Below are positions 54-4,828 of a stretch of 4,828 nt of DNA, in pieces. Both the position numbers and the translations under genes were made by a program. Each line of letters begins with the position of its first letter. Positions within the stretch are counted from its first letter, which is position 1. Under the pieces are notes generated by a model, which had not been told where the DNA came from, made no database searches, and worked only from the letters and a program-made list of their open reading frames with translations. The DNA is from a virus. Taxonomy: Duplodnaviria; Heunggongvirae; Uroviricota; Caudoviricetes. Where the stretch lies: the IMG/VR virus record IMGVR_UViG_2541047125_000007; one strand, written 5' to 3'.

Positions 54-865
54 TAATTGATTCAATTTTGCATGCAATGCAGGGGCGGGTTCTGGATGGT
101 GACCTTATTTCCGGATGGGAAAAACGTCAGGTGCTGAAAGAGGACAATGGTAATGTTTCGCAAACCGCAAAATCCCCGGCAGAGCGCAAGAGAGCGCAGC
201 GGGAGCGGGAAAGACTGCGGAAGCAGAACACTGATTGTCACGATGAGTCACGACGCGTCACGCATATGTCACGACAAGTCACGACAGATACAGATACAGA
301 TAAAGAATTAAACCCCACACATAACGCGCGCATGCGCGAGAGTGCTCCGACCAGTGAGTCGAATGGCGCGCCGTTGCAGACAGCCGAACCTGAATACCTG
401 GACGGCCTGAGCGAACCGATCGGGAAATTTCCGATGACTGGTGTCTGGCAGCCGTCGCCGGATTTTCGACAGCGGGCAGCAGTGTGGGGTATGGCTCTGC
501 CTGAGCCTGAGTTTACACCTGCTGAGCTTGCCGCATTCCGGGATTACTGGATGGCGGAGGGGAAGGTTTTCACGCAGGTTCAGTGGGAGCAGAAATTTGC
601 CCGTCACGTGCAGCACGTCAGGGCACAGGTAAAACCAGTCAGCAAGGGGGGAAGCCATGCAGCATCAGGTGGCACGGCATCACGGGCAGTTCAGGAAATC
701 CGGGCTGCACGCGAACAGTGGGAACGTGACAACGGATTTATCAGCAACGGAAACGGCCTGGAAGCTGTGGGAGCTCATGGGGGAGGTGTATTCGAACCGC
801 TGGACTCAGAAGAACGGGGCCGCACCTTCGAAGCTCTGGATTGCCCAGATTGGTGCGATGACTGA
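2..865 (+). CDS. Phage replication initiator, 5'-partial, with a DnaT-like C-terminal domain
   Basis: The frame is open from window position 2 with no upstream stop, so the true start lies left of the window (the ORF track's GTG at 41 is internal). Stop is TGA at 863-865. Residues from about nt 410-630 (PIGKFPMTGVWQPSPDF...FTPAELAAFRDYWMAEGKVFTQVQWEQKFARHVQ) closely match my recollection of the C-terminal ssDNA-binding domain of E. coli primosomal protein DnaT. A basic linker (AERKRAQRERERLRKQ) is followed by the iteron-encoded segment, as in lambda O-type initiators with an internal ori. Confidence 0.8.
   Translation: MDVTTEDLASALDVTEDVIDSILHAMQGRVLDGDLISGWEKRQVLKEDNGNVSQTAKSPAERKRAQRERERLRKQNTDCHDESRRVTHMSRQVTTDTDTDKELNPTHNARMRESAPTSESNGAPLQTAEPEYLDGLSEPIGKFPMTGVWQPSPDFRQRAAVWGMALPEPEFTPAELAAFRDYWMAEGKVFTQVQWEQKFARHVQHVRAQVKPVSKGGSHAASGGTASRAVQEIRAAREQWERDNGFISNGNGLEAVGAHGGGVFEPLDSEERGRTFEALDCPDWCDD
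233..340. repeat. Putative replication origin: five helically phased TCACGAC-type iterons, an AT-rich tract, then a 12-bp GC palindrome
   Basis: TCACG cores start at 238, 248, 258, 269 and 279 (spacing 10, 10, 11, 10 bp). They are followed by (GATACA)-like repeats and the AT-rich stretch agatacagatacagataaagaattaaa (about 285-311), then the perfect palindrome CGCGCATGCGCG at 327-338. This is the same order of elements as ori-lambda, which lies inside the O gene. Confidence 0.6.
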
Positions 866-1319
866 ACAGCAAATCCGTCTGGTGTGCCGTCAGTGCATGG
901 ACCGCTGCCGGGCGGGTGAAACGTGGCCCCCGGACCTGGCTGAGTTTGTTGCGCTGATTTCGGAGAGTGGGGCAAATCCATTTGGTCTTACGGTGGATGC
1001 CGTGATGGAAGAGTACCGGCGCTGGCGCAATGAATCCTGGCGATACGACGGGAGTGATAAATACCCGTGGCCACAGCCTGTGCTGTACCACATCTGCCTC
1101 GAAATGCGTACCAGAGGGATTGAGCGCCAGATGACGCAAGGTGAGTTAAAACGACTTGCAGAACGGCAACTGACGAAATGGGCAAAGCAAGTTGGTAACG
1201 GGATGAGTATTCCCCCGATCCGGAGACAACTCGCATCGCCGAAGTGCCCGCAAGGGCCAACGCCAATTGAATTACTGAAACAGGAATACGAGCGCCGGAA
1301 GGCGGCTGGTTTTGTTTGA
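657..1319 (+). CDS. P: Lambda P-like replication protein (DnaB helicase loader family)
   Basis: The C-terminal two thirds align by eye with lambda P (WPPDLAEFVAL ~ FLPSPGQFVAW; YPW; GELKRLAERQL ~ AELRRKAADEL; IPPIRRQL ~ IPEPVKQL). ATG at 657 is preceded by a strong SD (AAGGGGGGAAG at 644-654), and the frame opens just after a TAA at 630-632. Stop is TGA at 1317-1319. Alternative starts are ATG 777 (GGGAG SD) or ATG 858; the N-terminal similarity to lambda P seems to extend upstream of 858, favouring 657 or 777. Confidence 0.75.
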   Translation: MQHQVARHHGQFRKSGLHANSGNVTTDLSATETAWKLWELMGEVYSNRWTQKNGAAPSKLWIAQIGAMTEQQIRLVCRQCMDRCRAGETWPPDLAEFVALISESGANPFGLTVDAVMEEYRRWRNESWRYDGSDKYPWPQPVLYHICLEMRTRGIERQMTQGELKRLAERQLTKWAKQVGNGMSIPPIRRQLASPKCPQGPTPIELLKQEYERRKAAGFV

Positions 1320-1352
1320 ATCTGAGAAACGATTTTGTCGGAGGAAATTTTA

Positions 1353-2069
1353 ATGGAAACCGTATCTGACGCACTGAAAGCACTGAAAAAAGCCTCTTCA
1401 CATGTGGTGGCAGCTCGCCTTGGAATCAGTCGTGAAGAGGCTGTCAACGAACTGTGGAAACTGAAACGCCGTGGAGAAGCGGATAACAAGGGGGCGATAT
1501 GGTGGCTGACTCAGGCTGGTGAAAGTGAACCGGTGTCACCGGTACCGAAAGTGACGGCGCAAATGCTGACAGAGGCGATTGAACAACATGGCCCACAAAC
1601 GGCGGATGAACTGGCATTGATGTTCGGAATTACCTCCCGCCGGGCGAATTCATCGCTGGCAATGGCAATCAGCAAAGGGTGTCTGATTCGCGTGAATCAG
1701 GATGGTAAATTTCGTTACTGCATACCGGGCGTTGATTTACCGGCAGAGCCGAAAGCAGCATCCGTAGCTGAAACGGAGGGTAAAGCCCTTCCTCAGCCAG
1801 CTGGTGTTGCGTTACCAGTCCAGGAAACGGCTGCACAGGAAGAAATTAAAACAGAAGCGGTGGAGGACATTGTGAAGTTGCAGCAATCGTTCACTGAAGC
1901 GAAAGCAGATGACCTGATTCTACCATCGCTGCATGTGGCTAACCGCGAGCTGCGCCGGGCGAAAAGTAATGTTCAGAAGTGGGAGCGAGTCTGTGCTGCG
2001 CTACGGGAACTGAACAAACACAGGGATATTCTCCGGGATATTACCGCCACCAGAGAGCAGCAGCGGTGA
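1353..2069 (+). CDS. Hypothetical protein with two winged-helix-like segments and a C-terminal coiled-coil-like region
   Basis: ATG at 1353 with SD GGAGGAA at 1340-1346 (the ORF track's 1335 start is a TTG in the same frame). Stop is TGA at 2067-2069. The segments [38 protein letters not shown] and [43 protein letters not shown] look like tandem wHTH units; the charged, heptad-like C-terminus suggests oligomerisation. It may belong to a DUF-type phage family, but I cannot confirm this from memory. Confidence 0.7.
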
Positions 2070-2383
2070 GTGGCTGGAAGAAGTGGCGCTGGGCTGAAAT
2101 CCTGATACTCCGGCAGTGTGCGGGAACGATGAGAGTCGAAAGCATCGGTTATCTGATTGGCCGTAGTGAGTCAGCCGTCAGGACGAAAGCGCGGGAACTG
2201 GGTATCAGCATGATGTTACGGGGTGATTATCACCAGTCAGCCAAATGTTCACAGCGTGATATTGAGCTGGCGTGGCAACTGCATCAGCGTGGTGTACCCC
2301 GACGGGAAATTGCCGAAAAGTTTGGGATGAAGTTGGGCGCAGTGAATAACTACGTTTATTTCGACAGGAGGGTTCAGGAGTGA
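2066..2383 (+). CDS. Small helix-turn-helix DNA-binding protein
   Basis: GTG at 2066 overlaps the upstream stop as GTGA (translational coupling); alternative start is ATG 2111. Stop is TGA at 2381-2383. [35 protein letters not shown] is a classic HTH of the resolvase or sigma region-4 type, and the N-terminal half ([10 protein letters not shown]...[24 protein letters not shown]) resembles a second DNA-binding motif. The upstream part of the track ORF (from 1979) lies inside the previous gene. Confidence 0.6.
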
Positions 2384-2682
2384 GGGTGAGGGTTTATATC
2401 GCCGGTCCGATGACGGGATATGAAAATTTTAACCGCGAGGCATTTCACAAAACGGAAGAGGTGCTGAAACGGGAAGGGCATACCGTTTTAAACCCGGCAG
2501 TACTTCCGGACGGGCTGACTCAGCCACACTACATGGATATTTGCATGGCAATGCTCCGTTGCGTGGATGCGGTTTACATGCTGAAAGGCTGGCAGCAGTC
2601 GGCAGGTGCAGGGGCTGAGCTGGCACTGGAGGAGAAACCGGGCCATGCGGTGATTTTTCAGGAGGTGGGCAGTGAATATTGA
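2380..2682 (+). CDS. DUF4406-like protein (nucleoside 2-deoxyribosyltransferase-like fold)
   Basis: GTG at 2380 overlaps the upstream stop (GTGA) with AGGAGG at 2366-2371; alternative GTG at 2386 has AGGAG 5 nt upstream. Stop is TGA at 2680-2682. The motifs VYIAGPMTG near the N-terminus and GW..SAGAGAE.A.A...G..V near the C-terminus fit this superfamily as I recall it. Confidence 0.7.
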   Translation: MRVRVYIAGPMTGYENFNREAFHKTEEVLKREGHTVLNPAVLPDGLTQPHYMDICMAMLRCVDAVYMLKGWQQSAGAGAELALEEKPGHAVIFQEVGSEY

Positions 2683-4546: not shown

Positions 4547-4651
4547 ATGTCGGATGATATTTCACTGGTAATGGAAGGCGCTCTGGCTGTTATTGCTGTT
4601 GTGGGTGTTTACTGCCTGGTTGTGTTTTTGATGGAGCGCCTGGGGAACTGA
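4547..4651 (+). CDS. Putative 34-aa hydrophobic micro-peptide (MSDDISLVMEGALAVIAVVGVYCLVVFLMERLGN)
   Basis: ATG at 4547 has a strong SD (AAGGGAGGG at 4535-4543, 3-4 nt spacing). Stop is TGA at 4649-4651. It has an acidic N-terminus and a TM-like core, and falls below the ORF-track length cutoff. Confidence 0.4.
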   Translation: MSDDISLVMEGALAVIAVVGVYCLVVFLMERLGN

Positions 4652-4661
4652 ATTCATTCCG

Positions 4662-4677
4662 TATGGGAATTCCCATA
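4662..4677. promoter_or_regulatory. 16-bp perfect palindrome TATGGGAATTCCCATA (possible operator or protein-binding site)
   Basis: The perfect dyad sits 11 nt after the last small ORF. No U-tract follows, so it is unlikely to be an intrinsic terminator. Confidence 0.35.
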
Positions 4678-4828
4678 TCGGGCAAAACGGTTTGCTGTAA
4701 AGCGAGAGTTAAGTAGAATTGCTGCGGGTGCTTGAGGCTGTCTGCCTCGGGCATGCCACCGTAAGGTAGACAGAGAAAAGCCCCAGTTAACATTACGCGT
4801 CCTGCAAGACGCCTAACATTAATCTGAG

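Follow-up and report, generated by a model that had tools for sequence, protein, structure and literature searches.

What occupies the position directly after the replication genes in the rightward early operon of a Rac-like lambdoid prophage, and do the two genes found there act together? The question is raised by the IMG/VR virus record IMGVR_UViG_2541047125_000007 (Caudoviricetes), of which a stretch of 4,828 nucleotides (nt), hereafter the window, was analyzed. Two open reading frames (ORFs) on its plus strand, at 1353–2069 and 2066–2383, encode proteins of 238 and 105 amino acids (aa). They overlap by 4 nt (2066–2069) in a GTGA motif that combines the GTG start codon of the second (2066–2068) with the TGA stop codon of the first (2067–2069). 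An earlier note, made from the letters of the sequence, had taken them for a coupled pair of DNA-binding proteins that might regulate the downstream cargo, form an anti-repressor-like module, or assist replication or partition. We find that the first gene belongs to the DUF1627/YdaW family and that the second encodes a tandem helix-turn-helix (HTH) protein. The reading that we favor, at a probability of about 0.5, is that they are two independent accessory DNA-binding proteins expressed early from the pR-type rightward operon of the prophage.

Both genes are real and are under purifying selection. With 98% identity over 96% of its length, the window matches a prophage adjoining potC in E. coli O157:H7 strain SS52 and in numerous further O157 genomes; in SS52 it falls in the early rightward operon of a lambdoid prophage of the Rac type. 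Both ORFs and their GTGA overlap, as described by the earlier note, recur there as identical RefSeq coding sequences, which the Prokaryotic Genome Annotation Pipeline (PGAP) labels “DUF1627 domain-containing protein” (L001 10353–11069) and “hypothetical protein” (L001 11066–11383). The 238-aa protein matches PF07789 with 272.1 bits against a cut-off of 28.1 (E-value 1.6e-81), its residues 76–230 covering the entire model (1–155 of 155), and phrog_630 with 384 bits over residues 1–237 (5.7e-115). The 105-aa protein, whose family carries the NCBI name “DNA-binding protein”, has a partial match to phrog_323 (1.8e-24). Homologous clusters at 90% identity number 2290 for the former and 158 for the latter, and the ratios of nonsynonymous to synonymous substitution rates (dN/dS) are about 0.17–0.36 for both genes compared to other alleles, with individual ranges of 0.2–0.36 for the DUF1627 gene and 0.13–0.36 for the 105-aa gene.

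The start codons of both genes can be assigned. The ATG at 1353 is preceded, at a distance of 7 nt, by the Shine-Dalgarno (SD) sequence GGAGGA (1340–1345, plus strand) and begins a METV N-terminus that is invariant among relatives. A leader of ~25 nt that includes this GGAGGA is kept before DUF1627 at loci with P-like and with DnaC-like loaders. In the 105-aa protein, the columns from Trp7 to Gly20, upstream of the next methionine (Met22), are near-invariant, and relatives in other genera start with M[SNK]KW at the equivalent position; thus, GTG 2066 is the true start. A 134-aa version of this ORF that starts at GTG 1979 was rejected, given its 91-nt overlap with the DUF1627 gene and the fact that the proteins of relatives begin at the 2066 position. 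Since no good SD sequence lies upstream of 2066, translation of the 105-aa protein by termination-reinitiation is likely; it would be made by reinitiation at the GTGA, without a ribosome-binding site of its own.

Among 5426 complete E. coli genomes, at least 2092 carry part of the region 1353–2383, and 576 carry both genes. DUF1627/YdaW is what Rac-like lambdoid prophages, and many of the Stx type, normally carry directly after the replication genes. The earlier note correctly placed the two genes immediately after P (1319 is the end of the P-like gene, 33 nt before the DUF1627 ATG), in what is the ren position of lambda; the view that this is an unusual place for such proteins is not supported by these counts. 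The family itself is narrow, with 145 clusters at 50% clustering and E-values up to 1e-3. Its taxonomically placed members come nearly all from Enterobacteriaceae, the exception being one phage recorded on Actinobacillus; this range is a lower bound, and a genome scan with a narrower alignment gave 8 loci. Matches to repeat proteins of 458–2196 aa in the search of representatives (P0446, P0474, P0497) were judged spurious and due to low complexity. Three further representatives are chimeric ORFs (P0365, P0387 and P0363), in which an initiator N-terminus is fused to DUF1627 or the DUF1627 frame continues into the 105-aa gene; decayed prophages or frameshifts are their probable source.

Comparison of loci argues that the two genes are neighbors and not partners. 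Among 80 IMG/VR loci with DUF1627 at 76–100% identity, the gene that follows is the 105-aa gene in 52 (directly adjacent in 51), DUF977 (“Ren-like/LygF”) in 24, and neither in a few; one locus, L078, has DUF977 interposed between the DUF1627 gene and the 105-aa gene. Phages and distant relatives have in this place a gene for Ead or for an Rrf2-like, Lar-like zinc-finger or ParB-like protein. Viewed from the other side, DUF1627 lies upstream of the 105-aa gene in all 78 of its closest IMG/VR relatives, with DUF4406 downstream in 77 of the 78. Relatives at 60–67% identity, from Salmonella, Pantoea and Citrobacter, are located in early-left operons (RecE/RecT ... Xis-Int), and a relative in Enterobacter is located after O-DnaB-DUF4406; no DUF1627 relative was found near any of these. 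A 235-aa protein encoded before the Enterobacter gene was considered as a hidden DUF1627 and rejected (hhalign probability 0.4%, no Pfam matches). The divergence of the two genes is also uncoupled across loci: their identities are uncorrelated, and where DUF1627 is at 86–91% the 105-aa gene spans 79%–98%. The overlap, too, is of a common kind. The SS52 operon contains 7 overlapping gene junctions, overlaps of the GTGA/ATGA type being the rule there, and the 105-aa gene shares an identical 4-nt GTGA (2380–2383) with the downstream DUF4406 gene, which has a strong SD sequence of its own (AGGAGG, 2366–2371). Because the neighbor varies, the 105-aa gene occurs alone, divergence is uncoupled and overlaps are common, we conclude that the adjacency is a mosaic joint frequent in E. 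coli prophages, and that the case for a dedicated two-part system is weak.

Neither do the two genes stand apart from the rest of the operon. No plus-strand promoter-like site was found inside the operon, and its terminator-like matches are weak hairpins at a chance-level frequency, so that a separate transcription unit for the two genes was rejected. Both genes would be co-transcribed with the replication genes and the downstream nin-like genes on a delayed-early transcript of the pR type. The lack of an internal promoter-like site also means that there is no obvious local target for a regulator of downstream cargo, and this suggestion of the earlier note is not borne out.

An AlphaFold2 (AF2) model of the DUF1627 protein, built on a 27-sequence alignment, places two winged-helix-like units (WH1 and WH2) before a disordered linker and a long C-terminal helix. 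WH1 (residues 1–55; 1353–1517) contains helices 4–11, 16–23 and 27–39, with a predicted local distance difference test (pLDDT) score of 73–83, followed by a wing of low confidence around the invariant Trp50. Conservation within the family is highest here (METV.DALKA...W50), and in relatives this unit has weak matches to HTH_11, DeoR and TrmB. WH2 (residues 66–126; 1548–1730) has an H-H-H-beta-beta topology, its core (residues 69–123) being modeled at pLDDT ~90. This unit is basic, with a mean charge of +3.7 (charge means were computed over 41 family members), and Arg96, Arg113 and the wing residues Lys119 and Arg121 are conserved. The linker (residues 127–188; 1731–1916) is acidic, rich in Pro and Glu and variable, with a mean charge of -6.1 and a pLDDT of 26–43; the disordered segment of the model spans residues 130–189. 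The C-terminal region (residues 189–238; 1917–2066) contains a conserved LPSL and forms a basic amphipathic helix with invariant columns (helix 193–237 in the model, pLDDT ~88, mean charge +6.8).

The tandem winged-helix units and the tail helix described by the earlier note are thus present, apart from the low confidence of the WH1 wing. The coiled coil assigned to the tail is less well founded, since the best heptad register places hydrophobic residues at 8 of 14 a/d positions. We regard the helix as a candidate element for oligomerization and/or nucleic-acid binding. The copy number of WH2 in the family ranges from zero (P0381, P0471) to two (P0452, P0406), while the N-terminal unit and the C-terminal module (...IP.F...DDLI.P...EIRR.K..L..LE.LR) are constant. 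As both ends are constant and the middle unit varies, the ends form the core of the family. We propose that the basic WH2 and the basic helix bind nucleic acid, most probably DNA; the protein probably self-associates through the same helix, and the conserved, slightly acidic WH1 is a possible protein-contact module.

The winged-helix assignment of WH2 is supported by both structure and sequence. Foldseek superposes WH2 onto ArsR/MarR/FeoC/Z-alpha-type winged helices from the PDB with a root mean square deviation (rmsd) of 1.1–2.7 Å. For the MarR/ArsR regulators ST1710 (3gfi), AntR (6uvu) and a YgaV-like protein (3cuo), the rmsd is 1.5–2.7 Å over 53–61 residues, with 1.5–1.6 Å for ST1710. Distant DUF1627 relatives exceed the Pfam cut-offs of HTH_24, HTH_27, TrmB, MarR and Penicillinase_R, which gives the assignment a basis in sequence as well. 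Membership in the MarR family is not indicated by sequence for the window protein itself (MarR_2, 15.3 bits compared to a threshold of 27), and certain distant relatives alone pass. In contrast to MarR/ArsR regulators, the model lacks the flanking dimerization helices and has tandem units, linkers and one distal helix instead; additionally, no adjacent divergent promoter or operator, as in MarR systems, was found near DUF1627.

The best Foldseek match of the whole model is the tandem winged-helix, “kite”-type protein ScpB (3w6j_E; E-value 3.5e-4, 148 columns covering both units). This match has a template modeling (TM) score of 0.20–0.29 and an rmsd of 12.7 Å, and no kleisin or SMC partner is encoded near DUF1627. 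Unlike ScpB, the window protein has a basic second unit and, in addition, a basic helix at the C-terminus. Two winged helices in a row may be all that is shared.

The second protein was described by the earlier note as a 105-aa HTH protein; the fold is confirmed, but the model contains two three-helix HTH bundles rather than one. The AF2 model (47-sequence alignment, mean pLDDT 79) shows a first bundle at residues 9–45 (2090–2200; helices 9–18, 24–31 and 35–45, pLDDT ~90) and a second at residues 63–104 (2252–2377; helices 63–74, 79–86 and 90–104, pLDDT ~83). Near-invariant columns characterize the first bundle (KW.RAEILI.RQCAGTM.V..IG.LIGR...AVR.KARELGI). In the second fall the matches to Sigma70_r4_2 (21.2 bits against a cut-off of 25.7), HTH_23 (16.2 against 24.6) and HTH_7 (16.0 against 23.8), all below the Pfam thresholds. 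This arrangement of two three-helix bundles joined by a flexible linker within ~100 residues is likewise found in bipartite HTH domains such as those of the CRISPR-repeat binder Cbp2 (2lvs), Tc3 transposase (1u78) and Pax paired proteins. Cbp2 is the best match by both profile and fold; the matches are weak, with TM scores of 0.3–0.37 (for 2lvs_A, a profile E-value of 2.1e-4 that covers both HTH repeats, and a Foldseek E-value of 5.9e-3 with a TM score of 0.30). Tc3 was found with an E-value of 0.14, and the Pax bipartite domain is also among the matches. In contrast to Cbp2 and Tc3, the 105-aa gene has no transposase, nuclease or CRISPR context. Fold matches in BFVD include many uncharacterized phage proteins of ~100 aa and N-terminal DNA-binding parts of phage endonucleases, as well as GcrA-, Myb- and Mor-like proteins. 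The 105-aa protein would probably bind two adjacent half-sites, one for each bundle. DNA-binding-type folds are therefore predicted for both products, in agreement with the earlier note, and each protein would be a non-essential accessory.

Searches for specific roles and targets were negative. Neither protein matches an antirepressor family (Ant, KilA-N/Bro-N, AntA/AntB) in Pfam, PHROGs or NCBIfam. ParB-like and ribbon-helix-helix domains are likewise not matched in Pfam or PHROGs, the operon contains no ATPase gene, and the only repeats, where a partition system would have a centromere, are the ori iterons at 236–285; the antirepressor-like and partition modules that had been suggested thus receive no support. 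The two palindromes named by the earlier note as binding targets are real, and neither follows the genes. The first, a perfect palindrome CGCGCATGCGCG at 327–338, occurs at 10 of the 80 loci, is tied to one type of O gene, and is absent from DnaC-type loci that carry an identical DUF1627 allele. The second, the perfect 14-bp palindrome ATGGGAATTCCCAT at 4663–4676, occurs at 15 of the 80 loci and tracks neither DUF1627 nor the 105-aa gene. Both were rejected as conserved targets. A hydrophobic 34-aa peptide ORF (4547–4651; “hypothetical” in SS52) precedes the second palindrome. Within the DUF1627 gene, an 11-nt perfect inverted repeat, AGCCTCTTCAC at 1391–1401 and GTGAAGAGGCT at 1432–1442, has arms separated by 30 nt; it was not retained as an element because in most alleles 9 of 11 positions are complementary, and it is probably due to chance.

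Several points weigh against two accessory DNA-binding proteins. The position of DUF1627 is fixed after every kind of replication module, which an accessory regulator leaves unexplained. The analysis yielded no candidate operator, and the two palindromes of the window do not co-occur with the genes. Both proteins fall below the Pfam thresholds of every named HTH or winged-HTH family. Winged helices can be protein-binding modules, among them ScpB, the best Foldseek match of the whole model, and WH1 is acidic on average (-1.8). At every abutting locus in phages of the E. coli type, the joint from DUF1627 through the GTGA to the 105-aa gene is invariant, so that a functional link is conceivable in this lineage. 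Finally, the one functional hint in the literature is that a retron toxin was blocked, and this suggests a host- or defense-directed role.

The constancy of the slot favors a role of DUF1627/YdaW in replication. In all 80 close loci, be the loader of the P-like or the DnaC-like kind, DUF1627 starts 33–46 nt downstream of the loader gene. It occupies the same slot in the phages 75/02 Stx, PPompW, pPE4 and PhiR5_2, in the K-12 cryptic prophage Rac (ydaU-ydaV-ydaW), and at 8 distant loci; relatives at 22–35% identity in Citrobacter, Raoultella and Buttiauxella lie there beside single-protein initiators or DUF1376 and DnaC. DUF1627 could be an accessory of the replication module that binds the origin, initiator, loader or a host replisome protein and modulates initiation or a switch in replication mode, the 105-aa gene being a passenger. 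Replication initiators and organizers often contain winged helices. However, alleles 100% identical to that of the window follow DnaC-like loaders at some loci (L007–L009) and P-like loaders at others (L010–L012), with different initiators and origins, which makes allele-specific contacts to O, P or the iterons improbable. The palindrome adjacent to the origin is missing from the DnaC-type loci, as noted above, and neither protein is similar to known families of replication proteins. Moreover, lambdoid early operons typically have a fixed gene order, which may be due only to recombination joints, the ~25-nt leader being conserved. We consider a replication accessory unlikely, at odds well short of those for independent DNA-binding accessories.

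The same slot is occupied in lambda by ren, which lets lambda escape Rex exclusion. Both lambda Ren (NP_040633) and DUF977/LygF (PHROG 142, “Ren-like exclusion protein”) are encoded, like DUF1627, after the loader gene. Ren differs from the 238-aa protein in being 96 aa long, with one unit. DUF977 has an N-terminal winged HTH (HTH_24, 21.1 bits), in which it resembles the content of DUF1627, and often occurs alongside DUF1627 rather than replacing it. Homology is not established in either case: DUF1627 was rejected as a homologue of Ren (BLASTP E-value 1.1; hhalign probability 16%, which is weak), and DUF977/LygF as a homologue of DUF1627 (hhalign probability 5%). WH2 has a weak profile match to phrog_142 (E-value 2.7e-4), no stretch of which passes alone. 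The alignment of WH2 with Ren covers 58 columns, the full length of a winged helix, with a winged-helix-like pattern. Due to this length, the premise that the lambda slot lacks proteins of DNA-binding type is itself doubtful. In prophages of Raoultella and Buttiauxella, the DUF1627 relative has as neighbors extra genes for single winged-helix proteins (L090 4506–4796 and L092 5591–5998); one of them is FaeA-like and aligns to WH2 of DUF1627 with an hhalign probability of 82%. Winged-helix proteins seem to accumulate at this position behind the replication genes.

K-12 YdaW (b1361), encoded by Rac, belongs to the same family as the window protein, has predicted winged-helix content, and is 58% identical to it over residues 1–139. 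It is a truncated protein of 186 aa (L182 3753–4313) because a deletion in Rac joins ydaW to rzpR, and it retains the two winged-helix units but lacks the conserved basic helix at the C-terminus. The module upstream of ydaW in Rac consists of DUF1376 and a DnaC-like protein, compared to an O-like protein with a DnaT domain and a P-like protein in the window. YdaW has been listed as a predicted MarR-type transcription factor with an uncharacterized function (PMC4797297; PMC9308461), and one study reported reduced early biofilm formation on deletion of ydaW (PMC3105296). In a genome-wide screen, overexpression of K-12 ydaW, along with other prophage genes, blocked the RcaT toxin of retron-Sen2 (bioRxiv 10.1101/2020.06.22.160242; cited in PMC11951105). 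The ORF that scored in this screen is the truncated YdaW, which comprises only the two winged-helix units. DUF1627 has also been used as a marker of Pas small RNA prophage neighborhoods. No functional study of either family emerged from our literature search, which covered DUF1627, PF07789, YdaW and RcaT blockers.

These observations allow a second alternative, in which DUF1627/YdaW is a host-takeover or anti-defense protein, the counterpart of lambda Ren, whose winged helices neutralize abortive-infection toxins or host factors. The ren slot, the presence of DUF977 as an alternative or adjacent neighbor, the weak matches of WH2 to phrog_142 and Ren, and the RcaT result are consistent with it, as are the modular variation in WH2 copy number and heavy mosaicism, which are usual for arms-race genes. 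The RcaT result, however, is a single match in a screen of an overexpressed, truncated ORF, and the literature search turned up neither a mechanism nor any further work on ydaW in this respect. Further points against it are the unproven homology to Ren and a dN/dS of 0.2–0.36, with no overall sign of positive selection. None of the 8 proteins encoded at 1353–4437 matches PADLOC-DB, a library that covers defense rather than anti-defense proteins. We view this role as rather improbable, somewhat more so than one in replication.

More speculative is a reading in which DUF1627 would be not a transcription regulator but an escort of the replication module, a counterpart of Ren that neutralizes toxins such as RcaT or a host DNA-transaction factor that senses phage replication. 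Such a role would explain why DUF1627 stays joined to whatever replication module a lambdoid phage carries. Least probable is a dedicated two-protein regulatory module, a heteromeric regulator or a regulator/anti-regulator pair for the downstream cargo with its ratio set by translational coupling, since the conserved GTGA joint, the constant presence of DUF1627 upstream of close 105-aa relatives, the DNA-binding-type folds of both products and the read-through ORF P0363 are outweighed by the exchangeable neighbors, the 105-aa genes without DUF1627, the uncorrelated identities, the same coupling to DUF4406 and the lack of a downstream promoter-like site to regulate.

In the remainder of the SS52 operon, racR, a ydaS-like HTH gene and a ydaT-like gene precede, in this order, the O-like initiator gene, which has a DnaT domain and lies at 41–865 of the window. 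The origin-type iterons at 236–285 are located inside this gene as three overlapping copies of TGTCACGA.(G/A)AGTCACGAC. The P-like helicase-loader gene (858–1319, plus strand; “replication protein P” in SS52) matches Phage_lambda_P with 58.7 bits and phrog_109; its start was taken from PGAP, the ORF being open from 657. A weak hairpin with a 5-bp stem and a T-run is found at 1294–1310 (plus strand), in the last codons of this gene, and such matches occur at a chance frequency. Lambda has terminators downstream of P at roughly this place.

Downstream of the two genes, the order in SS52 is DUF4406, DUF4752, a hypothetical gene, Ead/Ea22, a gene for a 63-aa protein, DUF551 and hok/sok, followed further on by DUF968, RusA, lysis genes and terminase. 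The DUF4406 gene (2380–2682, plus strand) encodes a nucleoside 2-deoxyribosyltransferase-like protein (Pfam DUF4406, 2e-33; phrog_355). The Pfam and PHROGs assignments are consistent with the gene names of the SS52 operon. The only structured RNA identified in the region with Rfam is the sok antitoxin RNA at the 3′ end of the window (4726–4828, plus strand; RF01794, 61.3 bits compared to a gathering threshold of 59, E-value 2.6e-12), by which it is clipped. The hokD toxin gene is next after sok in SS52.

Both proteins are already known to RefSeq, Pfam (as DUF1627/YdaW), PHROGs and NCBI (as “DNA-binding protein”), and their arrangement occurs in hundreds of E. coli genomes; the finding itself is therefore of little weight, and nothing in these two genes points to a new kind of system. 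DUF1627 is nevertheless among the commonest uncharacterized prophage genes of pathogenic E. coli, and its place is fixed after four kinds of replication module. As the family is so widespread in these strains, a replication-linked role of DUF1627 in anti-defense or host takeover would, if true, be of moderate interest.

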